Origin: Jimgerdemannia flammicorona | Taxonomy: Eukaryota | Direction: 5' to 3' | DNA: 41,705 bases | Assembly: GCA_003990765.1 (NCBI GenBank) | Contig: RBNJ01000102.1 | Coordinates: forward strand, 1 to 41,705 | Part shown: positions 2,769 through 41,705 of the stretch, one piece after another | Layout: every line of letters starts with the position of its first letter | Numbering within the stretch: the stretch's first letter is position 1 | Program-made: the position numbers and the translations under genes | The notes under the pieces: generated by a model | Told to the model about the DNA's origin: nothing | The model's input: only the letters and a program-made list of their open reading frames with translations | The model's database searches: none

Positions 2769-2772
<4 letters not shown>

Positions 2773-2806
<34 letters not shown>
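2773..2806. repeat. Poly(A) tract, 34 nt
   Basis: Seen directly. On the minus strand it reads poly-T followed by AACAG, like an intron acceptor. Confidence 0.9.
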
Positions 2807-2808
<2 letters not shown>

Positions 2809-2809
2809 A

Positions 2810-4197: not shown

Positions 4198-4199
4198 TA

Positions 4200-11721: not shown

Positions 11722-11739
11722 ATTCATATTGTTAACTTG

Positions 11740-12000: not shown

Positions 12001-12089
12001 ATCATCCATTATCTGATATCTATTATGTAGTTTTATTTCATTCATTATTTTATCTCTAGTATTCTATAATAAAAGATAATTGAAGAATA

Positions 12090-14475
12090 CTAGAATGTCA
12101 TCAGAATAGATATATATCTGATATTCAAGAGCTGTTCTAGATACAGTCCTTAGTTATCTTATCTGGCCTCTCAATAATGTATCTCTGCTCTAGATTATAA
12201 CTGCAAAATTTGTATCCAGATATACTCAGATCACCCAGATATCTCCTACAATTTTTGATGTAATCAGTATTATACATACTAGATAGTTTTATATCATTCT
12301 TATTATTGTTACTATTACTTCTGCTCAATCTACTGAGAGTGAGTATATAGTATACTATTTCTTTAATATATCTGAAAATTCTCTTAATAGTACTCTAATA
12401 TAAATTATTATAATATAATGAGCACTATATCATCTTATTTATAATATATGAAATTTTAGACCTTATTTCTAGCATGAGATATATGAGAGAACTAACTGCT
12501 TATTAATAGTGAATATTGATATAGTTTTTCTCTAGCATAGTATCAGACTTTTTTAATTTTATCAAAGTTCCTATAGAGGTATTTACTGGTTTGCATTTAC
12601 TTATATTGAATTATTCAAGGATGATATAGATATAAGTTAACTGTGAGAGGTGTATTATATGTACTTTAGTTATATATAATAGATATCTCAAAAAAGAAGA
12701 ATGAATTACCCATATTAGTCATTTTGAATTTCTTATATTAACTCTATTAAGCTTGTTTTTGTCATAATAATAATAATATCATCTATCTATACATCTTTTA
12801 ATGCTACTCTATTGGTATAGTATTGAACATATATGCAATTATCTGCTTTAGAGTATATAAAGCTATTATTAAGAAGATATTTATTGATTTTTCTATTCCA
12901 CAAATAGACTACTTACTTAATATCATTTAATTATTTGCATAGTTTATATACTAGGTTATTCTGATCATATTCTTATAGCTGGTAAACATATAGAGCTATA
13001 TATATCTATATTGCTATTAAGAAAAGCCAACTTTATATCTATCTAATAGATTTCCAGATTATGTATAATACTGACTGCAAAAAGTATTCTTAGTAAAGTA
13101 AGCTTGAATATTAGTAAAAATATCTCACCATAGTCTATACTGTAATATTGCAAATAATTCTTAGCAATGAAATAAGCTTTATACTATTCTATACTTCTAT
13201 CACTTTTGTACTTAATTTTATAGACCCAATGTAATTTTATAATTTATTAATTGATCAGAAGAGATACTAGATTCTATATACTATTTCAATAAGTAAATTA
13301 TACTCTTTATCTATGGTTATCTTCTATCTCTTGTTGTCAGGGAAAGTTATTACTTTATTATATATGCTTAGTTCACTAGAAGTTATAATAAATATATATT
13401 CATATGTCTTAGCATATATAGCTCATGTGGTCTTTACATTAAGATATCTTTTGTATATTCTAATAACTCTCTAAATTGATATAAGTCTTATTTCTGAGCT
13501 TATGCTTTAGCTTTTCCTTACTCTTGATAGACCCTTTATCATTAATCTCATTATCCTTAATCTTCATTATCCTTGACTCAGATAACTCTGGCTCAGATAC
13601 ATATATATAGTAGTTAAAAATAATTTTACTTTATCAGAGTAATTGGTATTGAATGTTATACTGGCTAAGATATAGATATTAAAGTAAAGATTGAAATAGA
13701 GATTGAAGTAGAGATTATAGTAAAGATTCTGATAAGTATATCTATATAGGGTTTCAGATTTTTTTTTTTATTAAACTATACATTATGTGAGATTACTATA
13801 CAATATTTGCATGAATCTCAAAGTTAATACATCTTATCAGAATACACAAGAAATATATGCTTACTAGCTTTTAGCTCAAACTTGTACTAATTGGCATTAC
13901 TCTTATCAAGAATATATATATTATATATAAATATATATAAATATAATATATCTGATTTTATTCTACTCTGTAACTCTTCAGAAGTAAGATTATGTATGAT
14001 TGTTCCTGGAATACTTATTATTATTATTGCTAGATTTTTTATTTAATACTTAAGATATATATTAGTTATATATATATACTACTATATTAATAGTCTCAGT
14101 CTAATAAGAATATGATAATCTGGCTATATTGATTATTGTATATGCTATTTCCATGGCTATACAGTTAAATCACTTAGTTACACTATTCTGCTATACATAG
14201 TATTTATAATACTATTGTCTAATGATATATATCATATTTCCTCAGATACTACTTAAAAATATTATAGATATATTTATATCTATTATCTGAGTATATAGTA
14301 TATATTTTACATTCTGTTTTATTCTCTGTAATCACTTTGAATACTTTGAATTTCTCCAAAACTTTGTTCTTTATTAACAAGAAGTATATATATATTTTAT
14401 ACATATAATCATTAATAAATATAACAAAATATCTCTTTCCATTATAAGAAGTAGTATATATTAGACTATATATAT
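12090..14475 (-). pseudogene. Old Ty1/Copia element, segment 3: integrase core, RT and start of RNase H
   Basis: IYSLIYTTSYNGKRYFVIFINDY...KVLEKFKVFKVITENKTECKIYTIYSDN matches the Copia rve pattern. YNTDY...DLSISGYKF resembles YSDADWAG...KSTSGYVF. Domain order is IN before RT. Confidence 0.85.
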
Positions 14476-18900: not shown

Positions 18901-21851
18901 GCTTTCTGGCTAGGAAGATGTCCACATCAAATGGTCTTCCACTCTCCCTGAGACTACTGCTATCAGTGTCATCTGTTGGACCAACAAGAAAGATAGAGAC
19001 CCCAGAGACCAGAACCCCCAACTACTCTTGCACAGTCTACCATCTTTCAAGAAGTCACCACAAGGTTACAAAGTCGATTTAGAGGACAAGGCTTCTTTAC
19101 CCGAACAGAAATATACCCCTTGTCTACCCTTCCCCCAACCTATGATCAAGATGGGTACCGATTCCCAAGATAACAAGAGATAAATAGCCAGGAACATCAT
19201 TTCCAAGCAATGGGATATTGCAACCATGGGAGACACCCTGATTGCTGAGACTGCAGACATCAGAAGATTCACCTCAGTCATGATGTTGCAGTGCATACCT
19301 TGAAGAAAGGAGATAACTGAAGCTAGATCCAAAAAAGTCAGATTCGAAAAAGCCAGACCAAAAAGACTGAAAAAAGAATCCTCAAGATCTACAATTTAGA
19401 AGAAGACATCCTAGCTCTCATCAGACATGTAATCTACCAAGGATGGGCAGAAGATGCAACCAACTTCATGGAAGCCCTTGACCCTATAGGAAGGAGGGGA
19501 ATCAATTACCTCCAAGACCCCTCTGCTGGAGCCAGATGGCCACACCTCAACCTTAGAGCCTGGAGGCTTTCTGCTAGAGGAGCTTCAGCCTTAGGAAAGC
19601 CTGAACTCAGTAAGGACATTGCCCAGTATGCCCTGCTGCACCCTAAGGCCAAACCCCCAACCAAAGCCCACCCAGAGGATGTAGAATATGATCTTCACAG
19701 CCTGGAGGATGAATCTATCAAGCCTGGAAAAACCTTTATGGTCAGAACTGAATTAGCCATGCAGCCACCTCAAGGAGCTTATATTCAACTGACCTCAAGG
19801 TCCGGACTTGCCAGACAAGGGATAACTGTAGAAGGAGGAACCATTGACCCTGGATATATAGGTGAAATCAAGGTTATCCTACACAACAACAGTGCAGAAT
19901 GGCACCGAATCATTAGAGGACAGAAGATTGCCCAAGCAGTCTTCATGAAGGTCAAGACCCCACAGTTACAGAAAGTCTCTGAACTAACCAAAGGAACAAG
20001 ACAAGCCAAGGGATTTGGAAGTTCAGACAGGAAAGAGGTACATCTCCTTCAAGTCAACCACCTCAAGAGGAATGTTCCCCAGTAAGTATACCAGCAATCA
20101 GTCAGACTGCACAAGAATCTCATCCTGGAGTCTGGAGAACAAACTACCTTTGAAATATTTGCACCACCTGACCCCAGGAACCATTTCTTTGAACCCAAGG
20201 AAGACATCCTACACCTGGACATAGAGGGACATACATTCCCTGACAAGATGAACCCAGTATACTCCCGAGCAACCAACCAAAGTTGGGAGACCATCATCCT
20301 GCCAAAAGGAACCATCATAGGACATCTGGTGCCTTTTCTCAACTGAACTCATAGGGAAGTTTATGAACTAAACCTATCAGGAAATAGCAAAAGGTCCCAG
20401 AAGAAAGGAAAGGCCCCTCTGCGACCCAGGAGACAGTGAAGCCTTCCACTAACATTGGAGAAGAACTGACACCTCAACAACAGCAACAACTAGTAGAACT
20501 TCTCAACAAATATTAAGATATCTTCACCACTGATTATGGCAACCTACCATATAACCCATCATATCACCACAGCATAAATACAGGAAATGCAACACCCATC
20601 CAGCAGAAACCCTATAGAATACCCCATCACTTGAAAACATTTGAAAAGGAGCACATCCAAGAACTCTTAGACAATGGAGTCATCCGACCCTCTACCAGTC
20701 CCTGGGCCAGCCCTATACTTATTGTACCAAAGAAAGGAGAATGGAGACTCTGCGTGGATTACAGAAAACTCAACTCAGTTACTGAAAAGGATGCTTATCC
20801 TTTACCTAGAATCGATGACCTTTTGGACTAGTTACAAGATGTCAGATACTTCAGCAGTATGGACCTCTTCACAGAATTCCATGAGATCCCCATAGACCCT
20901 AAGGACATTCAAAAGACAGCCTTCCTTGCTTTAGGAAAACTGTTTGAATACCTCCAAATGCCCTTTGGACTCTGCAATGCACCCCCTACCTTTCAGAGGA
21001 TGATGAATTCAGTCTATACCCCCTTGATCCACCACTGTCTGATTGTATACATGGATGATTCCAACATCTATTCAGCAAATTTCGAAGAACACCTGCACCA
21101 CCTAGAGGAATTCTTCAAGCTCACCTGCAAGAATCACTTGAGACTAAATGCAAAGAAATGCTACTTTGGAAAACAGAAACTCAAATTTCTGGAATTCATG
21201 GTTTCAAAAGAAGGAACTCATGCAGATCTAAAGAAAACTGAGAAGATCAACAATTGGCTGGTACCCAAGACTCCAAAGGAAACACTATCATTCTTGATGC
21301 TAGTATCCTACTACAGAAGGTTTATCAAAGATTTTGCTCAAATTGCTGCCCCAATCTGAATCCTTCTCAAGAAAGGCGTACCATTCAAATAGATGGAATC
21401 ACAAGAAAAAGCCTTCACAGAACTCAAGAACTGCATGACTATAGCACCAATCCTTGTGCATCCCAATCTACAGAAGCCATTCATCTTGTATACAGATGCT
21501 TCTAAAGATGGCCTCGGGGTAGTACTGTCCCAAGAAGGACCTGACCAATAGCACCATGTGATAGCTTATGCAAGCAGAGCTATCAATCAGTAGCAAATGA
21601 ACTATGGTAGCACTAAACTGGAATGTCTTGCAGTCATATGGGTGGTCACCCTGTTCAAGCATTATTTTATTGGAAAAAGGTTCTCCTTGATCACAGACCA
21701 TACAGCCCTCAAATGGTTATTCAACCACAAGGAACCAGCCGGAATCCTAGCTCGCTGGATCCTTATCCTTCAGGATTACAAAATCACTATTATTCACAAA
21801 GCAGGGAAAGCCCATGACAATGTTGATGTACTTTCCCGCCAGCCCCAATGA
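15914..21851 (+). pseudogene. Gypsy-A gag-pol (gag, CCHC knuckle, protease, dUTPase, RT, RNase H) with stops and frameshifts
   Basis: LPTFAGYLEEDPREFL (gag); CFHCGQFRHYATEC; ILIDIGAAVCVI (PR); [34 protein letters not shown] and YMDD (RT); LYTDASK, ECLAVIW and TDHTALKW (RH). Confidence 0.93.
19620..20030 (+). other. dUTPase domain within the Gypsy-A polyprotein
   Basis: All five motifs: EYDL, SRSGLA, GGTIDPGYIGEIKV, IAQAV and RQAKGFGSS. Confidence 0.93.
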
Positions 21852-22927
21852 ATCAGAAGAAGGGTGTCTCGAGGAACCACACCCTAAAGGAAGCTCCTCA
21901 GACTATCAAAGCACAAGAAGATCTCATCTGAAAAGAACATCAGAAAGCCCACCAAGGACAGACAAGTATAGAAGACAGGATTCAAAAACAATATCAACAT
22001 TGGCCCCACCTCAGAACTCAAGTCCAGGACATTATTCAGAAATGTGATATCTGCCAGAAGTACCAAGGAAAGAAGAACTATCAAGCCCCTCTGCAACCGA
22101 TTCCCCCACCCACTCATATCTTTCAAAGATGAGGAGTAGATGTAATTGGACCTCTACCAGTTACATCAAGAAGAAACAAATACATTCTTATATTTGTAGA
22201 ACATCTGACCAAGTGGCCCGAGGCTTTCCCAATGAAAATCACAGATGCCTTAACCATTGTAGGCCTCCTCCATAGTCTTACACTCAGATATAGACCTCTA
22301 GAAGAACTCATCTCTGACCGAGGCATGGAATTCATCAACAACATAATCACAAGTTATGCCCAAATTCACAAGATCCACCTCAAAAGGACCACATCATACC
22401 ACCCTCAGACCAATGGCATGACAGAGAGAATGAACCAGACCATCAAGAAAGAACTTGCCCAAGTCAATCCTATTAATTGGGACCTCTGCTTACCTGAGAT
22501 CCTATGGGAAATTCGGAACACCCCTGCTACATCCACCAAACAAAAGCCATTTGAAATGATGTTTACCAAGAGAACCAGAACTACTGATTATGAGAATCTT
22601 GGAGATCTCCTCAAGAAGGCAGAACAGTTATGAAATCAAGCCCAAGGACAGATTATCAAAGCCCAGGAAAGACAAAAGAAGTACTATAATCAAAAACAGA
22701 AGGATCAGGAGATCAAGATTGGAGATCAAGTTCTAGTTTGGAGAAGCATGATTGAGACAAACTTTGCTACCAAACTGGAACTGAAATGGGAAGGATCTTA
22801 TCTTGTACACAACATCAGAGGAACCAGCATCTATTTAAGAAGTATGGAAGGATGAACCCTGAGAACACCAGTATACATCAATTGCCTCAAGATATACTTC
22901 TCCTCACACCATGAATCAGAGAATTGA
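21848..22927 (+). pseudogene. Gypsy-A integrase in its own ORF (ATG overlaps the RNase H stop as ATGA)
   Basis: EHQKAHQG...CDICQK (HHCC), GVDVIGPLP, ISDRGMEF, YHPQTNGMTER and KWEGSY. One 360-codon frame with internal stops; no chromodomain seen. Confidence 0.88.
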
Positions 22928-23462: not shown

Positions 23463-24809
23463 TGTAACAGACCAAAACGTACCACCTGAATTATAACTTA
23501 GCCAGATGATGTGAACAATTAGCATACTTACTCAGCATGATGTGACTTCTAGTGTATCATAGTTACCCATGCCTGCCACACTTATAATTAGTCAAAGACA
23601 CTAAATCAGGATTATTTACTTGTATCCTAAGGACACACTCATGTCCTGCAGACACACTCATATCCTGTGGACACACCTGTACCCAGAGAACACACCCAAA
23701 CATTACCAGAGATAGCAAATCTATAGTTAGCCACATAGTAACCAGATAGCAACCAACTTGTATAAATTACCCCAGAGACAAGAGTGAATAAACCTCAGTC
23801 CGAAATACAAACACCAAAGAAGCCTCTAAAGATTGAGCATTGGTCCCCTTTCCACTTCGGTCCACTTTCCAATACAAAGATTGATTGGTTTGCTTGCCAG
23901 ATAAGCCTGAAGATTTGCTGCCTAAGTTCAAGAAGAACTTTGCCACCTTTTGAGTAACCTGCTGCTTAAGGAATAAGCCACTATTTCCAAGTTATCCTCC
24001 ACCTTCCCAAGAAAGCCACTTTGCTCAAGCCAGTTTCTGACACAACTTCGCAGTGATTTGTCATGCAAACAAAGCTAGTCTTTAATGTAACTTTGCCAAG
24101 AGACCCTTTCCCAAAGAATGCCACCAGTAGTTTGTATTTCTAGTTGAAGCTGCTGATTTAGAAGAATCTGCACCACCTGAGTTATTTCCCAGAAGCCTGC
24201 CGATTTAGGAAGAATCTGTGTCATCTGTCATTTTCGAGTTATCTGCCATATTCCCAGAAGAACTCCACCAATTCAGGAAGAATCTGCATCATCCAAGTTA
24301 CCCAAGTTATTGAATTATCTGCCTCCCACAACATCCAAGTTATTTGTTATTCCCAGTGAGCCTGTTATGGAAAAATCCATGCCATACAATTCCCAGTGAG
24401 CCAAATTGAGTCATCTACCAGAAATCGTATATTCTTGGAGACTGTCATGTTACACAGAGATCATCATGCAGAAACTGCATAAAGAGAACTGCTAAATTAC
24501 TGGATTATCATGCAGAAATCAGAGATTGTCACCCAAGAAGGAAACTGCTCACACTATACATAAATTCTGCCATTCCCAGTTAACCCAAGAAAGAAACCCA
24601 TTCATACAAACTGCCACTATACCTAGAGAACTGTCCCAATAAGGAAACCACTTGTAGATATCCAGCTTTGACTATTATACCACTAAACACCAAGGACCTC
24701 AGGAATCTTAGAACATTTTGTTGCTTTTTAATAAAGTAACTAGGGGCTCAAGCCAAACTACATCAACCTCCAACCTTGTAATTTGCCTCCATTGAGCTGG
24801 CACATTACA
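23463..24809 (+). repeat. 3' LTR of Gypsy-A (1347 bp; two 19-bp repeat units)
   Basis: tgtaacagacc...cacattaca. It is 57 bp (3 x 19) shorter than the 5' LTR. Confidence 0.95.
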
Positions 24810-25157
24810 ATATCTATATGGATTAAATCAAGTATATCAAATATGTATTTTATCTATTCTTTAAATAGCTGCTAAGATACTTTATTTGATATACAATCCT
24901 TACAGAAGTTATTATAAAGATATATTATCAGTAATCCTCATATAGATTTTTTCCTAATTATCTTTTTTAGACTCAATTTGCCTATATATCTCAAGTATTG
25001 ATGCTATATATTAGATATATTAGATATAGTTATTATATATACAAAGGTTTTTATACCACTTAGTATACCATTAATCATATAAAGATTACCTCATTTTGAT
25101 ATCATTATAATCTTCTTGTTATTCTTCAAACTATATATTATTGCTCCCATTAGATAT
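24810..25157 (-). pseudogene. Old Copia segment 2: GAG-pre-integrase to start of integrase
   Basis: FCKDCISNKVS*QLFK followed by DLIHID, continuous with 14475 across Gypsy-A. Confidence 0.8.
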
Positions 25158-25203
25158 TGTAATGTAGCAGACACTTACTCTTGAATAGTGCTCTGAATGA
25201 GTC

Positions 25204-25620
25204 AATTCGAATCAAATCTGGATTTGATTCATCACATGATGGTTTGATTCGAATCTCAAATCCGAAGCCATCTGAATCAACTTGGATTTAATCTGAATCA
25301 CCCCATCCGAATCACCCCATCCAAATTACCCATCCGAACCACCCCAATCTGAATCACTCAATCCAAATCACTCAATCCAAATTGCTCCATCCAAATCGCC
25401 CCATCTGAATCACCCATCCGAATCACCCATCCGAACCACCCCAATCTGAATCACTCAATTCAAATCACTCAATCCAAATTACTCAATCCAAATCACTCAA
25501 TTTGAATCCTCCAATTTGAATCCTCCAATTTGAATCCTCCAATTCAAATCCTCCAATTCGAATTCTTCAATCCAAATCCTCATCCAAATCCTTCAACTGA
25601 ATCCTCCAATCCAAATCCTC
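25204..25620. repeat. Left subterminal repeats of the hAT (atccgaatc/atccaaatc/atctgaatc)
   Basis: Dozens of short units next to the TIR, typical of hAT transposase-binding arrays. Confidence 0.85.
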
Positions 25621-25715
25621 CACATGACTCATATGCCAGATACGTCCACAACACAACACACACACACACATACACACACACACATACATATACACACGCA
25701 AACATGCAAACACAC

Positions 25716-27205
25716 ATGTCAACAGATCAGTCTTCAACAGTTCACAGTACCGATGATGCTTCAAGTCAAACATTCCTGATAGTTCCACACCTTCCATGCA
25801 TCCTCGCTCCAAAATCTGGCAACATTGTGCTAAGATAGGAAATGATGTTGTTTGTAATTATTGCAGGTAAAAAATTAAGATGCACCTATTGACACTTTGT
25901 TTCGACACACATATGATATTGTTTTGACACACACATGATATTGTTTCATCCACCCCCATGAACTGCACCAGCCAGAAGTTCAAAATGCTTGGGAGTACAA
26001 CTTCAAACATGAATCAACACATAAAAGACAAGCACTCTGACAAAATCAAAAAGAACACAGAGACAAATAAAATCGACATCCAAGCTGTAGTGGGTATGTT
26101 TATCCAATTGCCTGACCATTTCTGTACCAATAATGCTTTTAATCAAAAATATTTAGCCATACTCTTTGGCAGAATTTCGAAATTGGCTCATTTGCTGGAT
26201 TGTGTGCACAGACCAGCCATTCACAACCATCGAGAGTGATCAATTGCATAGCATCTTTGGCCTCCTCAAGCATGATTTATATTTGCCAAGTGCCGATACT
26301 ATTCACAAAGATGTCCTGGAGGCCTATAGGAAGGAGCATGACAATCTCCGCCAGACACTTTAGGTAAAATAAGGGCAGCACCATGACCTTTGCAAGCTGA
26401 ATTATATAAAAGAGCTCACCAATTTAACCTCACATTCAATAAGCAGAATTCGGCAGGCAAAATTTCGTTTACGATTGACACATGGACATCCCTCAATGCA
26501 ATTTTGTTTCTGGGCATTACTGGTCATTAGATTGATCTCAATTGGCAGCTTAAATCTCTCACCCTTGACTTCGTCAAACTTGCTGGCCCTCATTCTGGAG
26601 ACAACATTGCAGATGCTTTTATTAGTTGTATCCAGAAGCTTGGGATCACCACCAAGATAAAAAAGGGGGGCTTGCTATCAGGTCGGTGTTTTGATGGAGG
26701 TCCTAAACCAAACCAGATTTTATTGGTTACTTATTTTCACATAAAATTGTCAACTAAATATTTCAAGTACAGATTTTGACTATTACAATGGACAATGTCA
26801 CAAACAACTCAACATTTTTCCAAGGTTTAGTGGCCAGCCTCAAACAGGAAAATATGGCCTTCAGTGCAGAAAGCTGCCGTGTGTAATGCCAGGCCCACAT
26901 ACTGAACCTCGCTGTTCAGGACTATCTTATGTATATAGAAAAAACATCCGAGAGAGGAGGGGCCCTGAGTATAATTTCCAAGCTACGCAAACTGGTTGTG
27001 TCGGTCCGATCGTCCCCACAATGATGAGACAAATTCGCTGCGCAGTGTAGGGCAATCAGTTTAGCCCCGAAAGAGCTTATATTGGATGTCTGTATGTGTT
27101 GGAACTCAACATTTGCAATGATCCAGTGTGTGCTGGAGTTTGCTATGATATACATCCTTTTTTTCTTCGATCAGCTGAAGCAACTGTTTCAGATGATGGA
27201 AGATT

Positions 27206-27236
<31 letters not shown>

Positions 27237-28300
27237 AATAGATTCAATGATGGCTGCCAACAAGGAAATACGGGCCAAGGCTCTAGGTGAAAGTGAGTGG
27301 GATGTACTTAGGAATGTTGTCAGAGTTTTGGAAGTAAGTGGTGATTGCCCTGGCTCTACACTCATTTTGTCTACCTCCACACAATGCAATACCTCACCAC
27401 ATATAACTACCAGTGTTTCGATAATTGTATGAAGGATATAGTCAAACAAACGACCCTGACAATAAGCTTTGCAATACCAGTATACAACCTTCTGATTGAC
27501 TGGCTAAAGGACAAGCTTGAGGACAGACTGGAGGGTTGTAGTGATTTATGGTTAAGCCCAGATCAGAGAGACACTGTGGAGGTTGCTCTAAGCAAGCTTA
27601 GAAAATACTACTCTCAAACAGATACTGCCATATACTCAATTAGTACAGATATGTCGATGTCAGTATGTAGCCATTGCCCCTTCCAAAACAGAGGAAACCC
27701 TGCAAAAACTCACTCTTCTTTTCTTCGAACAGTGCTGGACCCACGCTTAAAGCTACAATACCATAAAGATCAGGGCTGGGAGCAGCACTTCATTGAGAGA
27801 ACCAAGCAGGCTGTAATTGAAGTGTACCAGAAAAACTATGCACTGCCGCAAGGTTCCAGCCAAAGTCTGGATGAATATGCTGAGGGATCCCTCCTGTCCC
27901 ACATTTACTTCAGCAGAAAGAGGAAGAGGGAGCCATCAGTGGAAGAGCTGCTGTCAATAGACGAACTTACCATTTACCTCGCCAGTGACCGCATGGTTCT
28001 GCTGGAGGACACAGAGGTGCTCAACTGGTGGAAGGTGGGTTGTCAGGTGGGTGTTGGGCCAATTTAACCCATCAATCTAACCACCACTCTATCCACCAGA
28101 GTGTGCAGCTGCATCAAACGGACTTCCCCAGCCTGTGTAGTATGGCTTGGGACTACCTGGTGATTCCTGCCTCCAGCGCTCCTGTTGAGTGGGTGTTCTC
28201 AGGTGGGGTGGACCTCGTTGCCCCAAAGAGGTGTGCGCTGAATGCTGAGACAATCCGGGCATGTATGTATCTGAAGTCTTGGTGGGGCTCGGGCTACTAA
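25716..28300 (+). pseudogene. hAT transposase (BED zinc finger, DDE core, hATC dimerisation domain), multi-intron and disrupted
   Basis: RSKIWQHC...VVCNYCS|QKF...STTSNMNQHIKDKH (BED); FTIDTWTS; ITMDNVTNN; CQAHILNLAVQ; LDVCMCWNST; VLDPRLK; VLNWWK; FPSLCSMAWDYLVIPASSAPVEWVFS. Confidence 0.95.
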
Positions 28301-28429
28301 AATTCAGCAGGTCCATGGATAAGTTGGTTGGCCTTGTGGAATATTTAATACCTTTTATAATAAAAAGGAAAAAAAAACCTGAGGACTCAGCCCGGAGTTT
28401 GCAGTCAAAGTGGGGTGGGGTTGACAGTG

Positions 28430-29030
28430 GCAGCGGAGGGAGCATACAATATTTGCAGCTCTTAGCCAGTAGCAAGGGGCAGCCCCAAGCTGCCAGTGCT
28501 CGGGTCAGCGGGTGGGTCGGTGGGCAGGTTGGTGGGTCGGTGGGCAGTGGGTGGGTCAGCAGAGGGAGCATGCAAAATTTGCAGCTCTCAGCCAGTAGCA
28601 AGGGGCAGCCCCAAGCTGCCAGTGCTTGGGTCAGCAGGTGGGTTGGTGGGCAGATTGGTGGGTCGGTGGGCAGTGGGTGGGTCAGTGGAGGGAGCATGCA
28701 AAATTTGCGGCCCTCTGCCAGCAGCAAGGGGCAGCCCCAAGCCGCAAGTGTCTGGGTCAGGGGGGTAGGTGCGAGGGAGCACACAAAATTTGCGGCCCTC
28801 TGCCAGCAGCGAGGGGCAGCCCCAAGCTGTCAGCACTCAGGTCAGTGGGCGGGGTCAGTTGGCGGGCGCGGGGTCAGTGGAGGGAGCATGCAAAAATTTG
28901 CGGCCCTCTGCCGGCAGCAAGGGGCTGCCCCAAGCTACAAGTATCTGGGACGGGCAGAGCAGGCAGAGGGAGCACGCAAAATTTGCAGCCCTCTGCCAGT
29001 GGCATAGGGGCAGCCCCAAGCTACCAAGGA
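28430..29030. repeat. GC-rich array: six copies of a ~60-bp core with G-rich spacers
   Basis: agggagcatgcaaaatttgcggccctctgccagcagcaaggggcagccccaagc starts at 28437, 28563, 28689, 28774, 28881 and 28967. Confidence 0.9.
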
Positions 29031-29300
29031 GTCTGGGGTGGAGGGTGCTTCTGGTAGTTGGAGGGTGCTTCTGGTGGTCAGAGAGCATTTCCGGTGGTCA
29101 AAGTCATCGGTTCGGGTCTCACAGGCACCCCAGCCCTACACCACAGTACTGCACTGGCAGCACTATAGAGCAGGGCCGAGGGGCCAGTAGGGCCCTGCAT
29201 AATGGCTAAGCTAGTGCTACATAAGAGGTGCCCAGCCCAACCCCCCCATGCTCAACCTGCACAAATGGCTGCCTAACCCTTATGAAAGATTACCTAACCC

Positions 29301-31416
29301 TCACAAAAACTGCTCCACCCACCAGTCCCAGGCCTTGATGAGCCTGTTGGCCATTGTGAGTGCGATGACTGTTGTGTCCGAGCTCTTCTTGAAGGCGACA
29401 GTGCTGTGGTGGTCATGTGGTTGGAATAGGATGGCCGTGTTGGCTGCAAACAGGACCCCGAAACCATAGGTGAGGTCATACCAGACTCCGCCGCTATCCT
29501 CCCAGGTTGGGCCCTTCCTTTTCAGAATGTAAAATATTACTGGGGTGACATTGTTGTCTGTGTGTATGGGCAGAGAAAGGTTGCACCCGACATATCCTGA
29601 TATGATGTGAGTGTACAGTTGGGTGAACCCTTGGCCCAGGACCTCATACTGCCAGGCTATGCTGGTGGATGCCTGCCCTTGGTCCAGCCCCGGTAGCCCC
29701 AGCTTGGAAACCTGCCAAAATGGATAGCAACCGGTCAGTCCTTTTTGCATTTGGGGGGGCAGAAACCCCCCGGGCCACAGAAACCCCCTGGGCTGCAGCA
29801 CCCCAAAAAAGCGGAGCTCCTCACCTCATACGGTACACTAAATTGCACCAAGAATGTATGTACAGCTGTGCCGAGATCACCACCAAGCTGGCCTGCCATA
29901 TGCTCTACCAATCTGCTCAAGAACCCCAGATCATAGCTGCCATCGCCACATAGGTCGTGTCATGCTCACGTGCAGTTTGCTCTTCAATGGTACTTCTAAA
30001 GTTCTGGTAGGGGTACAGAATCTTGTGCATCCCTGGAATTGTATCAAAAAGAGTATGTCGGCAAAGAGTGTGATTTATCTGGGGAGGGGTTAAAAAAAAA
30101 AGGGAGACGAGTGCGGGGGATTTCGGAACTCCAGAACCCACCCTTCACCAGTGTTGCAGTATACCCAATTCTCATCCAAACCCCCTCTCCTTGCTTTTTT
30201 CGCCCCCTCTTTTCTGCCACCCAGTATTTGACGCAATCCTTGCAAATCTCATTGATGTGGCAGTGAAGCTCATCACCATAGAGGTTCCTTACCACTATTA
30301 CAACCACCTCTCCATGTTCATTAATAAAGATATGGTTCTCTTCGTCGTTGGTTACTCCTGCTGGCCAATGGACTCCTTGGTTGAGTACGATTGGCTCTGA
30401 TTCGAATGTAGACCCCCAAGCCTTGATGACGATACTGGTACTGCTCATGCTGAACATCTTGCCCTTGAATTTCTCTATTTGATCAGATGCCGGATGTGGT
30501 TGAACTTAAGTAACTTTGAACTCTCCTTTCCAATGGAACTGAGCCCTGATCTGAGGGACTGAGATAAGTATGCAGACGGGTTGCATATGGACGGGTTGCA
30601 TGCGGGCGGGTTGTGAGTGGGTTGCGTGTGGGCAGGTTGCATGTGGGTGGGTTGCGTGCGGACAGGTTGCATGTGGATGGGTTGCATGCAGATTGCATGC
30701 AGGTGTGGGTGTTTTTTAGGGGGAGACCATGTAAAAATGAAATTAAATAAAACATGGAGATGGATATTTCAGAGAAAGAGCATGAGTGAGTGAGCTGCAT
30801 GCCGGTGAGTTGCATGCCGACGAATTGCACGAGTTGCACAAGAATTGCTCATGAAGGCTTGCTTCTGTTTCTTTTGAGACCTCCACCACGTGATGTATTG
30901 ACTCAACAGCTCAGCCACCAAAGGCATGCCCTGCAATGTCTGCCAGCCTTTCTTCATCTTGACCAGATGTTGCAAATAAAGTTGGCAGATCTCACCATAG
31001 AGTTGTGGACCCTAAGAAAAGCATGAGGTGAATTGGGTCATGCTGGGGAAGTTTAAATAAATACAAGTAAACAAGTGGTGGCCGAGTGAGCAACCTACAT
31101 CTACTATCAGCTGCTCCAAAAAGACTGCTGTATACATAGCTGTGAGGTCTGTGAATTCTGAGATCCAAAGGGCTGCTGTGAGTTGTTGCCGGAATTCTCC
31201 CTCATCCCCGCCATCGCCATTGCCACCACCACCACCATTGCCCCTTTGGCTCTTGATGAGCAGCTTGTGTGCTGTCCATATGAGAAAGGATCTAACATTG
31301 TCAGCAAAGAGTGCATTTCTACCTCAAATACTCCCTCTTTTGACGATTATTACAGGGTGAAAAATGAGTAGACTGGACCAATGTATGAATTAAGGGCTGT
31401 TGCTTTGTTTGCTCAT
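29301..31416 (-). pseudogene. hAT cargo gene: 2OG-Fe(II) dioxygenase, TET/JBP-like. Proposed exons 31416-31099, 31011-30853, 30550-30142, 30032-29825, 29711-29301
   Basis: The last exon reads SGYVGCNLSLPIHTDNN...SGGVWYDLTYGFGVLFAANTAILFQPHDHHSTVAF...NRLIKAW, with HxD plus a distal H and a GG-aromatic strand. Upstream it reads RIGYTATLVKGMHKILYPYQNF. Intron phases are consistent, but the model needs three C>T stops reverted, one 1-nt frameshift near 29925 and one decayed GT donor at 30852. Confidence 0.72.
30575..30700. repeat. Short tandem repeat (gggttgcatgtg-like, about 15 bp) inside a cargo-gene intron
   Basis: Seen directly; it explains the repetitive ORFs 30475-30687 and 30483-30839. 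Confidence 0.75.
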
Positions 31417-31554
31417 GATGCAGCAGGAAAGAATAAAGAAAAAGAACAAAGAAAAGAGAGGGAACAAAGGAAAGAGTGATGTCACCAAAGTGTGGCAGAA
31501 AAAAAAAAACAAGAGTGAAATGAACAAAAGAAAGGGTGATGTCACCAAAGATTT

Positions 31555-31800
31555 CAATCTGGATGGATCAATCCGGATGGGTCAATCTGGATGGATCAAT
31601 CCGGATGGATCATCTGGATGGATCAATCCGGATGGATCATCTGGATGGATCATCCGGATGGATCAATCCAGATGGATCATCCGGATGGATCAATCTGGAT
31701 GGATCAATCCAGATCAATCTGGATCAATCTGGATCAGATTACAAGACCAATCCGAGTTGATTCGAATCCATCATATGATGAATCTGAATCGAATCTCATC
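31555..31800. repeat. Right subterminal repeats of the hAT (ccggatggatca(a)t)
   Basis: Tandem 13-14-bp units next to the right TIR. Confidence 0.88.
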
Positions 31801-32276
31801 TGGATCAACTCCATTCATTTGGAGCACTACTCTTGAAAGTATGTCAGATTTCTGTATCTTGAAAACTTGACTGTTTGGACTCTCGCAGAGTCTCTTGAAG
31901 TTACAGGGGAGGGTGGGTGAGTTCGAGGTGTATCTGCCTGCAGGCTTACTAGTTTCTTTGCTATCTCTTTGCTTTGAACTATTTCGATCTGAGGTTTATT
32001 CACTCGAAGATACTGGGTTATTTATATAAGTTTGCTAGCTATGAGATGGTTACTGGGTTACATGGCTAAGTTATGAGTCATTTAACACTTTGCACAATGT
32101 TTCACCAGTTGCGAAATACTATACTATATTGGGGAGCTCAATTTTGCACTTTGTGAAATATTTAGCAAGTTGCAAAATTAAGGACTGTTAACTATGTGGC
32201 TATACTACTTTGGGACTGAGTATGATCAAGTATTTATTCCCTATTTCCTTCTTCTGAATCTGGCTATACCATCACA

Positions 32277-32288
32277 ACTTCCTCCTGA
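32277..32288 (-). promoter_or_regulatory. Polypurine tract of Gypsy-B
   Basis: Minus-strand tcaggaggaagt lies immediately before TGTGATGG of the 3' LTR. Confidence 0.65.
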
Positions 32289-32313
32289 ATAGATGATCTC
32301 GTCCCTAAAGCAT

Positions 32314-32775
32314 CTATTCAAACTCCCAAGCTTCAATGGTCTGTATGGTCTTGTATTGCACAATTTGTTGTATCACTGTTTCCCAATGGTGTCGCCTAAC
32401 TCAGTTGAAGTCTGAGGGAGTCACTCCTCGCAGGTGGGCTAGTGCTGATTCATCCTCTCAGAATAGCTTGTGGATTCTTTTGGCAATGGTAATCTGGAAA
32501 TAGGAGAGCTGGCATTCTGCAATCCAATTTTCTTTGGTCATTTCTGGGTCTTGGTTGAGTACTTGGTCAAGTTTGAAGTACTCTTGGAATTTGTTCCGAT
32601 GCTGATAGGCCTTGAAGTGTGAGATCCAAGAGAGATGAGTCTGCACGATGCTTTGGATACCATCATAAGACTCCTCTATGGTCGGAGGCTCAGTGGTACA
32701 CCATTGTCTCTTGATGGCTCTTTGGGCAGCACTAGTGATCTTGAGTGCCATCACAGTACTTTTGTTACCGGCCAT
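32314..32775 (-). pseudogene. Unknown accessory ORF-X of Gypsy-B (153 aa if two TGA are read as CGA)
   Basis: MAGNK...FQEYFKLDQVL...ITIAKRIHKLF*EDESALAHLRGVTPSDFN*VRRHHWETVI...WEFE. The ATG overlaps the integrase end. Confidence 0.7.
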
Positions 32776-33957
32776 GATATTTCTTGAGTCAGTTTCGATG
32801 AATGGTGGTGGGAATTATAGTGCCTGAGGGTTTTCATAGCCAAAAGGTAGTTCCTTTTATATCTTGTATGAGGTAAGGTCCTTCCCACTTAGGCTCCAGT
32901 TTTCATGACCATGAAGCTTCAACTATATTCCGATACACCAGGACTTTGTCTCCTATCTTGATAATCTCTAAGGATTTGTGGGTCTTTTCAACATTCCTCT
33001 ATTGTAGTGTCTGTGCCTTAGTTATGTAATCCTCAGCCTTCTTCCTGATTTGGTGTAGTCTCCATATTTCCATATCTATATGTTTCCATACGGCATCTCC
33101 ATTGGATGACAAGGTTCCCTGAGAACATTCTTCTCTGAACAGCATTTCTCGAAAGGTAAAGTGAGTGCTTTGTGATCAGATATCCCAGAGAGCAGATAAT
33201 GCTATTGGTAGATAGTGATCCCAGTTCTTGTAGTTATTGCAGATCTTGGCAATAACGTTCTTGAGGGTTTTGTTGGTCCTTTCTACTTGTCCATTTCCTT
33301 GAGGGTGATATACTGTAGTCTGAATATATTGGATCTTGTACTTCTTGTAGAGAACTTCAAAGAACTGGTTCATGAATTCTGTTCCTCTATCTGTAGTTAC
33401 TTGATTGGGGTCTTGAACCGGCAGATGATTTTCTTGTAGAAGAAATCAGCGATTGACTGTGCATTGGCTTCCATAAGGGGTCCCACTTCTATCCATTTTG
33501 TAAAGAGGTCTATGATGATGATGATATATCAGTTGCCAGTCAAGGTCAAGGGTAGGGGGCTGATTATATCCATTGCAATGTGGGCAAATGGTACTGGTTC
33601 TATGTGTGCTGATCCTGGGGATTGATTTCATTGGTCTTGTTTCTGTTTCTGGCATTTGTCACAGGTCTTGACGAATTGTCTAATATCTTCCTCCATCCCT
33701 GGCCACCATATTATTCTCCTTGCCTTGTCATATGTATTCGTTCCTCCTAGATGGCCAAGTTCATATACTGATTTCATCACTTGCTCCTTCTTGTGTTCTG
33801 GTATGACTAGTAGTTTTCCTCTCTTCAGTGTTTCTCCATCAGTTTCGAATTGTTTCCATGTTCTGTTGATAATCATTTGTGTCTATTCTTCCAGATGTTG
33901 GGGCATCTTTCACTGTCCCAGGTATGTGATAATTCTATAGTAGAGCTCCTTATTCAT
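32765..33957 (-). pseudogene. Gypsy-B integrase in its own ORF (ATG overlaps the RNase H end)
   Basis: GHLGGTNTY...WWPGMEEDIRQFVKTCDKCQK; YHPQGNGQVERTNKTLK; KWEGPY; ends IHRN*LKKYHGR. Confidence 0.88.
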
Positions 33958-36900
33958 GATGATTTTGTGGGGGTGGGGTCTTTTGGGGTGTCTGTGAGAG
34001 GGTGTCGGCATTAGCATTGGTTCTTCCAGAGTGGTGTATGATCATTACATCATAAGCTTGCAACTTCATTATCTATCTGGCATAGATTCCTTTGGGTTGT
34101 CCAGTTGTCAGTAGCCAGATGAGAGCTGAGTGATCTGTTTGGATGGTGAAGTGTCTTCCAGCCAAGTAGTAGTGGAACTTTTCTATGGCCCAGATGACTG
34201 CAAGGCATTCCAACTTGTAGGATTCATATTCTTTTTCAGCTCCTCGGGTTCCGTGGCTGAGGTATGCAATGACATACTCCACTTTATCTTTCTTTTGAGC
34301 TAGGACTACTCCTAGTCCTTGTGCACTTGCATCAGTCTGTAAGATGAATTCTAGAGTCCAGTCAGGTCTTCTGAGGATGGGTGCCTGGGTCAGTCTGACC
34401 TTGAGTTTATCAAATGCTTTTTGTTGTTTGCCAGTCTACTGGAACTTGGTATCCTTCTTGTTAAGTTCATAGATTGGTCCTGCAATATTAGAAAATCCTC
34501 TAATAAATCTGTGATAATAGGAGGCGAGTCTCATGAAGGCTTGGGCTTCTGTAACAGTGGTGGGTCTTGGGTATGCTGCTACTGCTTATATCTTGAGGGG
34601 GTCCATGTGTGTTCCATCTCAGTTGATGATGTGGCCGAGATAGGAGATCTCAATTTCTGTGAACTTGCACTTCTTGAGTTTGATGTAAAGGCCATATTGT
34701 CTTAGTCTCTCCATTATCTGCTGTATGTACTGCAGATGTTCCTCAGGTGTCTTGCTGTAGATGATTATATCATTGATGTAGACCATCATCCATCTTCTCA
34801 TATCATAGTGGAAGATTTTGTTCATCATTCACTGGAAACTTGCTGGTGCATTGCACATTCCAAATGGCATTCATAGGTAGACGTAGGTTCCATCTGGAGT
34901 GATGAAAGCTGACTTTTCACTTGCCATGTCTGTGAGTCCGATTTAGTGGAATCCTGAGTATAAGTCCAAGGTGCTATAGTATTGTGCTTCATCTTCCAGT
35001 GTTATGAGGATGTCATTGATGAGGGGCAGTGGTTGGCGATCCTTCTTGGTAACCATGTTGAGTTTTCTGTAGTTGATACAGAGTCTTGGGGCGAATTCTC
35101 CAGGCTTGCTACCTTTTTTTGGAGCCAGTACAAAAGGTGAGGACCAGGGACTGCTGGCTTCTTTAATGATACTGGCTTCTTCCATCTGCTTGATTTCTTC
35201 TCTGAGCCATTCTCAGTAGGCTGGCAGGACAGGTCTTGCTTTCTGATAAATTGGTTCAGTGTCTCCAGTATCTACTTCATGATAGTAGTGTGGGGTCTTT
35301 CCTTTGATATCCTTGAAATCTGTGGCAAGGACATCTTCGAATTCATGGAGTATTTTCTTGAGTTCTTTCTTGAGTGGAAATTCATTTCCGATGGTATAGC
35401 TGTGCTTGCTTGTGTTTTTCTCCTTCTTATGCTCGAGTTCAGTGATCTTGGTGTTGGTGAATACTCCTCTTCCTGTGGATCCAAATACTTTCTTTCCTCT
35501 TCTTGTTTTCTTCAGCTTCTTAACTTCTATGATCTTTGGTTGTAGGATCGGAAAGATCAACATTTGCGCCAATCGGTCCTTCTTCTTGACTGGAAATGGG
35601 ATTGTAGGATTGTGATTCCTAGCAATGAGTAGAATTTCTCTAGTGTAGTCTGAATCAATAACTCCTCCTTTGATTGTAATTTCACTTCTAGCCAGGCTGC
35701 TTCTTGTCTTGAGAATCCTGATATGATCCTTTGAGATGGTCATCTCCAATCCAGTTGCAAGTAGGGTAGTTGTCTGGGGTTCCAGTATGGTCTCTTCTAC
35801 TGTAGTGATGTCCATTCCAGCTGCATTTTCTGACTTGTATTCTGGCAAGACTGCATCAGGGTGGATCTTTCAGATCTTGACCTTGATTTCTTCTTCATCA
35901 TCACTGTCCTCCAGGAGAGCTGGTGGTTCATCATCTTCCTCCTTCTCTTCTTCCCTAACCTGTTTTTCAAGAGCTTTCTGCCTTCTTTCCTGGTGGATCT
36001 TCCTGATTCCGATGGTGCACTGGTAGCAATTATTGACATGCTCCATGCAGTACATTTTGATCCCATGAGGACAGACTCCTTGTGAGGCATAACCTTCTGT
36101 GATCTTCTTACACCATTCTTCTTCACTCATCCATCCAACTTTCTTCTTCTTTGGAGTAGTCACCATATAAGCTTTCTCTTGCTTGCTCTCTTCTTCCTCC
36201 ATATCAGGCAGGACTCCTTTGTTGACATTGATGGGAATTTGTATCTTCTGTCCCCAGTAGATGATCTGCATCTTCTGGATGTTGAGATCGATTACTGCCT
36301 TGGCTTTGTGAAGCCATTGATTGCCAATGAAGATGTCATAGTTGGTGGTGTTGGTTACAATTACATCTACTGGGATGGTTGCTCCTCCAATCTTGATGGG
36401 AACATCTCAGATCTTTCCCAGAGATGTGGCTCTTATGCCATCGGCTGTGACAAACACCAGCTTAGTTGCTTCTTCCACATCCCAACCTAGGCAGTCTGCT
36501 GCCTTCTTGCTGAGGAGACATCCTCTTGCTCCTGTATCAATGATGGCCTCAAAGATTCTATCTTCGATTTGGCATATTGCATATGCAGAGGTTTTGCAAT
36601 TGTCCTCACTTTCTTCTTCTGAGTCCTCTTGAACATTATTGGCCTCAGTTATCTTCCATCCCTATTCCTTAGTTGTTTCGGCAAGTCCAAACCTCATTTG
36701 CTGTCTGAATGTTGGGATTTCTGCAAGCTGACCAAAGGTTGCATTGACCTTTTGTTGGCTGAGGTCCTTGAAGATATCATACTTAAAGGTCTTGGTCTTG
36801 TGAAGCTTCTTCTCTTTTTCTCCTTCACTGGCTGGAGTGATTCCTCGGATGATACATATCTTGAACTACTTACTCCAGCTCTGTATCTTGGTCCATCTCT

Positions 36901-37946: not shown

Positions 37947-38042
37947 CTTGTCTGGATATTGGGGCTCAGTTTGTATGGTCATTTGGGTGGTGGCAGTTGT
38001 TCATTGTTTAGCTTGAAAGTGTGGAATTTGTCTTGAATCACC

Positions 38043-38057
38043 AGCCAATAGACACCA
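38043..38057 (-). promoter_or_regulatory. Putative PBS of Gypsy-B (tRNA not identified)
   Basis: TGGTGTCTATTGGCT starts 3 nt downstream of the 5' LTR on the minus strand. Confidence 0.45.
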
Positions 38058-38060
38058 AGT

Positions 38061-38527
38061 TGTAATATAGTGGACACTTACTCTTGAAAGTACATCAGAT
38101 TTCTGTATCTTGAAAACTTGACTGTTCTGACTCTCGCAGAGTCTCTTGAAGTTGCAGGGGAGGGTGGGTAAGTTTGAGGTATATCTGCCTGCAGGCTTAC
38201 TAGTTCCTTTGTTATCTCTTTGCTTTGAACTATTTCGATCTGAGGTTTATTCACTCGAAGATACTGGGTTATTTATACAAGTTTGCTAGCTATAAGATGG
38301 TTACTGGGTTACGTGGCTAAGTTATGAGTTATTTAACACTTTGCAAAATGTTTTGCCAGTTGCGAAATACTATACTATATCGGGGAGCTCGATCTTGCAC
38401 TTTGCGAAATATTTAGCAAGTTGTAAAATCGAGAACTATTAACTATGTGGCTATACTACTTTGGGACTGGGTGCGATCAAGTGTCTATTCTCTATTTCCT
38501 TCTTCTGAATCTGGCTATACCATCACA
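38061..38527 (-). repeat. 5' LTR of Gypsy-B
   Basis: Colinear with 25158-25185 plus 31838-32276; TG...CA termini. Confidence 0.95.
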
Positions 38528-39600
38528 ATATATATATATTTATTTATCACCATAGGCCATCATTTTGCTGATTAAAAAGAGATTCTTTTTTATCTTCAAA
38601 GTATATAATATGTCCTAAAAATTATCAGCAGTCTCTATAATATTTTTACAGAGATATATACTGATATTTTCTCTTTCCTGAGTATATATAACATTGTTAT
38701 CATCTAATTTAATTAGTATCAGATGCTTGAAGAACTTATAGATAGAGAACTATTCTTAGTGAGCTATTATATTTTATATAGCCTCTGAATCCATAAGCTA
38801 TATATTATTATCATCAGCTATATTAGTATATACTTCACTTATATTATTGCTTTTTGCTGGCTCAAAAGTATATGACTTAGATGTAGATATAGATAATATC
38901 TTCTCTAAATACTCAGCATATATTACTTATATGTAGAATATGCCTTTACTCTAGTTTTTATTAGTTTTGGTAGTATTTGTATTATATTACTATTATATTT
39001 CTTTCTACTGCTCTTATGTTACTAATACTGACTTTTATGCTTATTTTCATCATTTTCTTATCCTTATAATAGCTGACATTCTATATATATCTATACTTAT
39101 CATAGTAATGACAGTTTCTAACAAACTTAGTAGACTTATATTTCTGATCTTATTGGTATTTCTTATCTCATCTGTATGACTCATAAAATATTTTCTCATC
39201 ATTATTATTGCTACTATTTTCTTGATATATCTCTTCATTAATGAGGCTTATTGTTATATGAGTATAGTTTACAAGTTTTCTGCTCTCATATATAGCTATT
39301 ACTGTAATATTATATATCTTAGAGAGGTCTCTTATAAGGATCAGAACCTTGTCTTCATTATTAATACACTCTACTGGCATACTTAGAGAATTCACTCAAT
39401 TCATCAAATCATTAATATAATTGATATATTTATAAATACTTTTCTTGGGTTTCCTTTATAGATTGAATAATTAAGATTTTAGATAGAATCAATTTGATGG
39501 GAATACTTATACATAATAATTATATAGAGTCTCTCATATATTGTAGACTATTGTAGTATACATTATAAGCTTCGTTTACTGATTTAATAATATAAAAATA
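38528..39600 (-). pseudogene. Old Copia segment 1: gag and protease (boundary uncertain)
   Basis: *LMDSEA at about 38780-38800 is a decayed WLMDSGA. Position and strand continue from 25157 across Gypsy-B. Confidence 0.65.
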
Positions 39601-39999
39601 ATCTCTTATAATACTTTTTTTTTTTTTTTTTTTTTTATAGTCACTTGGACTCATCCTTTATTACACCCATCTATTCTATATAAATACAATGAGCCCACCC
39701 CCTATCCAATCCCCCTAGGGGGGCCCCTCCCTATCTCTTATAATACTCAATTATTTACAATATCATAATCTTGATTCTATACTTATAGTTTTATATACTC
39801 TATTATGCTATACTCTTTTAGAGAATAGATCAATATTTGGTATATCTCTTACTTAGAAGTCAGATCATAGAGGACTCACCTACCAATACTCTGAGTATTC
39901 ACAGATGTTCATATCTTAAGGTGGATTAATACAAAATTATTGATATATGTATTCTATTTCCAGCATTCTAGCTCTCTTATTACATCCAGCTAATATAAT

Positions 40000-41705
40000 A
40001 TAAAGATGACTCACTATTACTTAATACTAATTCTGAGACTGCTGGAGTGACTAGTCTACCTTCTGATATTGCTACTATTATTTCTAGAGCTCTCAAAGAA
40101 TCTGAAGATACTGGAATAGATACTGAAATAGATACTGAGATAGATCTTGAGATAGATAGAAATATTTCAATTAGTCAGTCTTTTGAAAAAACACTAGTAT
40201 ATTTTAGTGATAACTCTAAGTCTGAATCTGGACTATTATTTGATGAAGAGAAGAGTAATGTTGATAGCAATCAGAGTGATAACTCAGCTGAAATCTACAA
40301 TAATCTGATGTAACTTTCTGAGTTACTTTAGTTTGGTAATATTCTTTCTCACTCTAATACTAGATATATATATAATGTTCAAGGAGAAGACCAAACTTTA
40401 CAATAATCTATATTATTCTTGGGCTAGTAAGAATGAACTTTGGCTATCAAATTTCTTATTCTTCAAAGTAAAAATATCACTTAGAGTAGCTGATGAACTT
40501 ATGAATACTATCAGAAAACATTATATAACTATAGAAGATCTGGATATTTTGAACTCAAGATAGATATTAGCAAAAGCAGATAAAGTAACTTATATATCAG
40601 TAAGTAATATAGTTTTATTTAAAAACTATATATTTTAGTAGTAAATTATAGATTTTTGATTTAATTAATATATTAATCATTATTTTTATAGTAATTCTTC
40701 AACAAAAGATTACACTCTATCAAAATTATAAAATATGGACTATAGAGTATATTCTTTATTACAGAAGTCCTCTAGAGATTATTCAGACTCTCTTGTATAA
40801 TCCTCTTTTTAAAGATGATATAATTTATATATCTGAAAAAAGATTTTATTCAAATGGTTAACATTTATATTCTAAAATATATTAGAGTGAATATTGGTGA
40901 AAAACTCAGATAAGTGAATAAAATCTAAATATAAAAAAAACTTTATAATATATTTCTAATATATATATATATATTTTTAACTTAATAGGATACTTTACCA
41001 ATAAGTACTACTTTTGTTTCAATTCTCTTAGAAATTGATGAGACAAATATCAATGATATTGACAGAATATTAGTCCATTCTTTATATATCATTATTGACA
41101 ATCTATCCAAGAAGATTCAACATATATATAGTTAGTATATCTATATTCTAGTTATATACTTTCCAATACTAGATACTATTGGAATAGAAAGATATTGAAC
41201 AGCATTTATAAAGACTAAGAGATTTCTTTATTATTAATATATAAAGACAATTCTCTCAGAACTAAATAATACTTCTCAAAGATATTTATATTTATATTTA
41301 AATATTAAGTTTTGGATTATTATAATTAATTATATATTTTAAAAATATCTCTTATATTAATTATAGAGAAAGATTTTGGAAATACTCAGATGGACAAATA
41401 AGACACTGTTTTCTAGTTGTCTTTGGATTTCAAGTTGATTATCCAGAATTACAGATACTTATCTTAATAAGACAGAACAATATATATCCAATATATATAG
41501 CTGGAAAATCTGATTTTAGCAATCTCTCTCAAAAAGATATCAGATGAGGACATCTGAGCATACAATACAACTATACAAAGAAGCAAAGAATCTATATGAA
41601 ACTAGAGCAATTATAGATGCAGTTTCTTTAGTAATACGGTCTAATTTATGTAGAGATAATTTAATTTTATTATCTTATTATATAATTTTAATAATTATAA
41701 AAAAA
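40000..41705 (+). pseudogene. Decayed Plavaka-family transposase with introns; runs off the window
   Basis: NLYYSWASKNELWLSNFLF; YILYYRSPLEIIQTLLYNPLFKDDIIYISEKRF...LYSKIY*SEYW*KTQ; TLPISTTFVSILLEIDET...VHSLYIIIDNLSKKIQ. These follow the Plavaka pattern YRDPL..I..L..NP.F...GDWWW..Q...LP.GAT..PIIL.SDKT...HP.Y.TIGN. Confidence 0.8.

Follow-up and report, generated by a model that had tools for sequence, protein, structure and literature searches.

Does a hAT transposon of Jimgerdemannia flammicorona carry, between its own ends, a gene for a Tet/JBP-like DNA-base dioxygenase, and does that gene belong to the transposon? The question arises in the window, by which we mean the whole 41,705-nucleotide stretch of DNA that was analysed. 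A sequence-only reading had described there a hAT with TIRs and a TSD and, facing its transposase, a minus-strand gene. Both points were confirmed: the element has TAGTGCTC ends, an 8-bp TSD, an hATC domain and an empty site in metagenome contigs, and a convergent gene lies inside it.

A dead hAT copy from a multi-copy family

Positions 25186 to 31829 of the window are a dead copy of a canonical hAT cut-and-paste transposon (8-bp TSD), and this copy belongs to a multi-copy family. Its features are as follows.

25178 to 25185, no strand: left TSD copy CTCTTGAA, 8 bp; the site is uninterrupted in contigs of the soil-metagenome runs X2 and X5
25186 to 25202, plus strand: left TIR TAGTGCTCTGAATGAGT, compared with the right end
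25296 to 25622, no strand: left subterminal repeat array (TRF) of 14-nt units with the core CCATCCGRAT, in the opposite orientation to the right array
25700 to 28300, plus strand: decayed hAT transposase gene, with Pfam PF05699 on 27989 to 28300
28431 to 28849, no strand: tandem repeats of 126/85 bp, rich in GC, that separate the two genes (TRF), with contig joints within 28516 to 29173
31554 to 31736, no strand: right subterminal repeat array (TRF), unit TCAATCCGGATGGA
31813 to 31829, minus strand: right TIR; contigs of run X6 exit the element at 31829
31830 to 31837, no strand: right TSD copy CTCTTGAA, identical to the left copy

Both termini read TAGTGCTC (25186, plus strand; 31829, minus strand); they are identical over 8 of 8 bases and then agree at 14 of the first 17. 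The CCATCCGRAT core is common to the two subterminal arrays, whose mutual inversion was seen both by TRF and in the inverted-repeat matches. A 7-bp TSD, as in hAT7 elements, was considered and rejected, because the duplication is 8 bp long and a 7-bp one would leave asymmetric termini. The TSD CTCTTGAA agrees with nTnnnnAn, the reported target preference of hAT elements. In the transposase, the hATC dimerisation domain (PF05699) was recognised at about 28109 to 28282 with an E-value of 2.5e-11 (43.6 bits; cut-off 21.4). The coding sequence is broken into numerous stop-to-stop ORFs that lie in three frames, and a BED-like CxxC...HxxxxH pattern was found by eye near 25840 to 26020. The other transposase ORFs gave no Pfam match, either to an RNase-H-like DDE core or to a BED finger, and a protein homologue search with the transposase as query returned zero homologues.

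Contigs from four public soil-metagenome runs (X1, X2, X5 and X6) were matched to positions 24686 to 32329. In contigs of X2 and X5, the sequence leftward of 31828 is a diverged copy of the left flank of the window, agreeing by eye at about 19 of 22 bases, and the three mismatches are all at CpG. These contigs, which join the 31828 side to a copy of the left flank, thus represent an uninterrupted target site with a single copy of CTCTTGAA. Three X6 contigs continue beyond 31829 into unlike flanks and are therefore taken as other insertions of the same hAT family. From run X1 alone, 2565 contigs matched; their identities ranged between less than 90% and more than 99%, and they covered each of the 30 bins, which indicates a diverged multi-copy family.

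Some features of the surroundings were also recorded. The element is inserted in another repeated sequence, and many soil-run contigs contain its two flanks (24686 to 25185 and 31830 to 32329) free of the hAT. Family copies differ in the number of repeats in the 28431 to 28849 array, since contigs from all four runs skip forward or step back there. The hAT lies between two decayed LTR retrotransposons of the Ty3/Gypsy type that point in opposite directions (16100 to 22700, plus strand; 32400 to 36500, minus strand). The pol genes of both include a dUTPase, PF00692 (E-value 3.5e-26 at 19327 to 20085 and 2.6e-25 at 35213 to 35869), and both elements also encode protease, reverse transcriptase, RNase H and integrase. 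Long AT-rich blocks with a GC content of 0.24 to 0.31 occupy positions 2000 to 5000, 10000 to 14000 and 38000 to 41000.

The convergent gene and its relatives

The second gene of the element has the transposase on one side and the right subterminal repeats on the other. It is a multi-exon minus-strand gene, extends from 29304 to about 31011 (perhaps 31323) and converges with the transposase. Its parts are listed below, beginning with the last exon; P0004 is a full-length protein relative, and L001 is a metagenome contig with a homologous gene.

29304 to 29711, minus strand: last exon (protein P0001), 136 codons, stop at 29301 to 29303
29712 to 29824, minus strand: phase-0 intron, GTGAGG...GGCAG, whose position matches an L001 intron
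29825 to 30033, minus strand: exon with a frame-breaking 1-base deletion at 29918/29919
30034 to 30139, minus strand: phase-1 intron, GTGGGT...TCCAG, in place and phase as in L001
30140 to 30478, minus strand: exon for the region of the beta-hairpin, the helix and the Gly-rich strand; tblastn with P0004 E 4.5e-11, with L001 E 9e-12
30479 to 30843, minus strand: probable intron with approximate splice sites, holding 15-nt tandem repeats at 30570 to 30689
30844 to 31011, minus strand: exon similar to the helix at the N-terminus of P0004 and L001 (..ITWWRSQKKQKQAF..), weak E-value of 0.067, co-linear
31012 to 31323, minus strand: open frame from the ORF list, putative first exon

Four exons, about 375 codons in total, are co-linear with P0004 (374 aa) and with the L001 gene. 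Of the five exons and roughly 500 codons proposed earlier, these four stand by homology; the fifth, the open frame at 31012 to 31323, has no homology to the relatives, and a search for a start codon in it found none. The phase-1 intron falls inside a Gly codon that precedes Met-His, and the phase-0 intron lies a few residues ahead of LP.LD. The probable upstream intron contains about eight copies of the 15-nt repeat GACGGGTTGCATGTG. A GCR1_C match on 30769 to 31011 (E-value 0.0062) was under the Pfam cut-off and was disregarded.

The motifs that had been pointed out in the last exon are where the sequence-only reading put them. IHTD occupies 29567 to 29556, with the His of HxD at 29562 to 29564 and the Asp at 29556 to 29558; the GGVWY..YG region is present as GGVWYDLTYGFGV; and HHST occupies 29411 to 29400, with the distal His at 29408 to 29406 and the Ser codon AGC at 29403 to 29405.

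The family of this protein is small: about six relatives were found among 1.8 billion representative proteins. A HMMER search over 1.84 billion such proteins at an E-value of 0.001 or below gave seven matches, five of which are true relatives: P0002 (76% identical), P0003, P0004, P0005 and P0007. The other two, P0006 and P0008, were discarded as repeat-protein false positives (a DUF7507 adhesin and a fungal lectin). A word-indexed protein search added one relative, P0009, and its profile version gave 2 of 8000 scored candidates. In a metagenome scan, 2 of the 23 pattern matches were confirmed, namely the contigs L001 and L002, which share 99% identity across 2.7 kb.

When six sequences were aligned, the two His and a further 15 positions proved invariant (6 of 6). 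The two His correspond to H283 and H335 of P0004, and the Asp is kept in five of the six sequences and in L001. The P0005 cluster (28 members) has HVN at this motif, and L001 (1537 to 1953) and the other relatives have HVD or HTD; some copies have thus lost the carboxylate ligand. An Arg lies 21 residues past the distal His in P0001 to P0004 and one position earlier in P0009, and it is missing in L001. Across these six sequences there is no invariant basic residue at the usual 2-oxoglutarate-anchoring place.

The contig L001 is AT-rich, its homologue is intact, and its segment 3490 to 3620 ends in GATTTGA/GATTCGA repeats. These end repeats share a 17-nt match (94%) with the left subterminal region of the hAT in the window, a hint that the L001 homologue also adjoins a hAT-like end. 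There is no transposase within the 3.7 kb of L001, and two ORFs downstream of its gene (2320 to 2945) have no Pfam match.

The copy in the window is a pseudogene, as had been proposed. Its frame is lost at 29918/29919, and one extra base at this point in contigs of other copies puts the frame back. This base accounts for 161.6 of a summed depth of 241.3 in X1, 3.54 of 3.54 in X5 and 2 of 4 in X6; the deletion is private to a minority of the family copies. Among the 12 of 87 indels listed, five fall in the gene span, three of them in the two confirmed introns and one in the putative upstream intron; the fifth is the frame-restoring base.

A second lesion had been read in HHST, as a change from HGT to HST by a single CpG-to-CpA substitution. 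This reading is borne out by the relatives: HG[TS] is found in all five that cover the site where the window has HS, which supports a Gly-to-Ser change, and CACGGC to CACAGC would be a CpG-to-CpA change. The Ser/Gly site, 29405, does not appear among the 40 of 1202 read differences listed, and support for the ancestral Gly comes solely from the homologues. Position 29387, which belongs to another codon, shows T to C in all covering contigs.

Nature, origin and possible role of the accessory gene

The case for a Tet/JBP-like enzyme begins with the H-x-D ... H iron-binding triad pattern of TET/JBP proteins, which is present in the window as HTD (29564 to 29556) and the distal His. In the ESM Atlas, where scores serve as leads only, P0001 adjoins a Basidiomycota PF20515 cluster (score 0.92, 179 shared features, 72% of members) and lies near a PF12851 cluster (0.89), and P0004 gave a PF20515 cluster at 0.96 (209 features, 15% of members) and PF12851 at 0.91. 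The nearest named Atlas clusters are mostly from Basidiomycota. Compared by eye with the PU-type TET domains of rusts in Table S1 of PMC12730594, the order and spacing of the motifs are the same, and the shared motifs are a Gly-rich strand, a helix ending in ..FN.P.., F..xxH.D, GG.F.[FY] and H.[TS].

The alternative is that this is a true hAT accessory gene with another fold or function, for example that of a DNA-binding or regulatory partner, in which the H-x-D ... H pattern is coincidental or marks some other metal site. It draws on a series of negative searches. Pfam gave no match, PF12851 and PF20515 included, for P0001 to P0005 and P0009 even at E-values up to 10; the single-sequence search of the PDB gave only noise (Rho, E-value above 1) and the profile search 0 matches; and PHROGs gave no meaningful match for the protein. 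Two AlphaFold2 models, with mean pLDDT of 36.4 and 40.2, were unusable; at this low confidence they contain a beta-hairpin, then helices and then about eight strands, and Foldseek on the second model returned 0 matches at an E-value of 0.001 or below, its top entry (herpesvirus gB) being noise. The canonical 2-oxoglutarate-binding Arg is not conserved, and the 28-member P0005 cluster has HVN instead of HVD, both of which would also suit a protein of another kind. Against this, two independent Atlas queries both adjoin PF20515 and PF12851 clusters, and both His are invariant, with spacing and flanking strands that resemble the PU-type TET domains in the published table. Moreover, PMC12730594 documents such cargo well on fungal DNA transposons. 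Taken together, we consider a gene of non-Tet/JBP nature unlikely. The earlier Tet/JBP assignment has the Atlas neighbours and the by-eye co-linearity of motifs in its favour, and finds no backing from Pfam, the PDB profile search or the AlphaFold models. Provided that this is a real cargo gene, its motifs and sequence neighbours suggest that it probably encodes a very divergent Tet-like DNA-base oxidase.

As to its origin, the gene is probably part of the history of the hAT element, which has a convergent, intron-containing accessory gene. The gene (29304 to 31011, or 31323) lies inside 25186 to 31829, between the TIRs and within the TSD. It is very unlikely to be a one-off capture or nested insertion, that is, a dioxygenase-like gene brought in from another repeat or host family by transduplication or within an inserted element: such an event would fit the higher GC content of the 28 to 30 kb part (0.55 to 0.58 vs 0.40 to 0.47 in the rest of the element), the L001 homologue with no transposase in its 3.7 kb and the lack of a contig spanning transposase and cargo in another copy (all matched contigs are short), but no inverted or direct repeat, TIR, TSD or LTR was found to bracket the cargo alone, contig cover in X1 and X5 is continuous over all 30 bins, cargo included, no joint that skips the cargo occurs among the 15 of 19 joints listed (these change only the copy number of the 126-bp repeat), the cargo has decayed at CpG to the same extent as the transposase and not as the flanks, and its place inside the right subterminal array is that of the cargo in published TET+ elements. 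Since no contig links the two genes elsewhere, the cargo could also be multi-copy by itself.

The figures for decay are as follows. The observed/expected ratio (o/e) of CpG is 0.33 in the transposase, 0.29 in the tandem repeats and 0.36 in the cargo, and that of TpG+CpA is 1.40, 1.46 and 1.44, respectively. CpG depletion and TpG+CpA excess are thus alike in the three parts of the element, and the LTR elements and flanks differ, with CpG o/e values of 0.10 and 0.16 for LTR retrotransposons 1 and 2 and of 0.25 and 0.18 for the whole left and right flanks.

CpG is strongly depleted throughout the window (o/e 0.10 to 0.36). The window mostly has T or A where the family contigs have C or G, which fits deamination of methylated repeats. 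These values, with TpG+CpA o/e of 1.40 to 1.46 within the element, agree with the earlier proposal that the host methylates and deaminates its repeats.

A canonical hAT with a Tet/JBP-like anti-silencing accessory gene is, on balance, the reading of the whole locus that we favour. We infer that the accessory protein would be a very divergent Tet/JBP-like Fe(II)/2-oxoglutarate dioxygenase. The substrate of an intact enzyme would be a methylated base, most likely 5-methylcytosine, in the element or in DNA close to it, and its oxidation would work against both silencing by methylation and the CpG-to-TpG decay seen in the host repeats. TET+ transposons in rusts, mushrooms and truffles have been proposed to act in the same way. 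More tentatively, and with some doubt, the protein may be the first example of a fourth type of transposon-borne Tet-like dioxygenase, one invisible to Pfam and carried on canonical 8-bp-TSD hATs of soil fungi outside the rusts, mushrooms and truffles, the three lineages for which TET+ transposons are catalogued; because the conserved 2-oxoglutarate-binding Arg is missing, a different co-substrate or base target may apply to such a type.

A transposon with its own demethylase-type enzyme amounts to a counter-defence against genome silencing. If the protein is Tet-like, a canonical hAT lineage would be added to the carriers of such genes, together with a cargo clade too divergent for standard annotation; since standard annotation overlooks this clade, domain scans may underestimate how widespread such cargo is. 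With its small size and variable Arg, the family would also be a compact candidate for enzymology, with respect to both the base acted on and the co-substrate used. If the protein is not Tet-like, the locus is still a clean case of an accessory gene conserved in a hAT family.

Comparison with known transposon systems

The sequence-only reading knew of no hAT described as a carrier of a TET/JBP gene, a view that is now outdated, since TET+ hAT7 elements of the rust fungus Puccinia are already in print (Kojima 2025, Biology 14:1741, PMC12730594). According to that article, TET/JBP genes occur in eleven lineages of DNA transposons, with three cargo types (PU, AG and PE) that are recognisable by sequence or HHpred, and twenty TET+ hAT7 families with 7-bp TSDs are found in six Puccinia species. 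A full-text literature search for JBP-type dioxygenases on fungal hAT transposons returned this one paper.

The hAT7 group resembles the present element in being a fungal hAT with a TET/JBP-type gene inside the TIRs beside the transposase, and in the proposed role of that gene, escape from methylation-based silencing and C-to-T hypermutation. The differences lie in the TSD (7 bp in hAT7, 8 bp here), in the ends and in the gene layout. In the rows of Table S1 that were compared, the hAT7 consensus starts with CAACGGTGGGC or CAGCGATGGGC, whereas the present element starts with TAGTGCTC; and hAT7-1_PCor, hAT7-2_PCor and hAT7-1_PHor have a TET gene upstream of, and co-oriented with, the transposase, whereas the present cargo lies downstream and is convergent. 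The cargo has, by eye, no recognisable sequence likeness to the PU rows compared, and the strings YGFGV, THVD and THTD have 0 occurrences in the 187,118-character supplement of PMC12730594. Some of the published PU rows have His for Arg in the ..T[RH].G.S.Q.. motif (PMC12730594, Table S1).

At the protein level, the cargo resembles PF20515 (2OG-FeII_Oxy_6, fungal Tet-like) and PF12851 (Tet_JBP) in having H-x-D and a distal His in a beta-rich C-terminal half; unlike them, it has no HMM match at E-values up to 10 and no conserved Arg at the usual distance past the distal His. With canonical hATs such as Ac, hobo and Tam3, the element shares the 8-bp TSD, short TIRs that begin with TAG, arrays of subterminal repeats and an hATC domain at the C-terminus. 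It differs from these by an additional, unrelated gene with several exons, by a tandem array rich in GC and by its decayed transposase, of which Pfam recognises the hATC part only.

The KDZ, Plavaka, EnSpm, IS3EU, PHISTA, ESTA and Helitron TET+ transposons of fungi likewise co-mobilise a Tet/JBP gene, and these carriers belong to other transposase superfamilies. Fungal TET+ transposons such as KDZ that co-mobilise Tet/JBP genes were reportedly described by Iyer et al. in 2014. Relative to the elements of PMC12730594, what is new here is a canonical hAT with an 8-bp TSD, another arrangement of the two genes and a cargo that does not resemble the PU rows compared.
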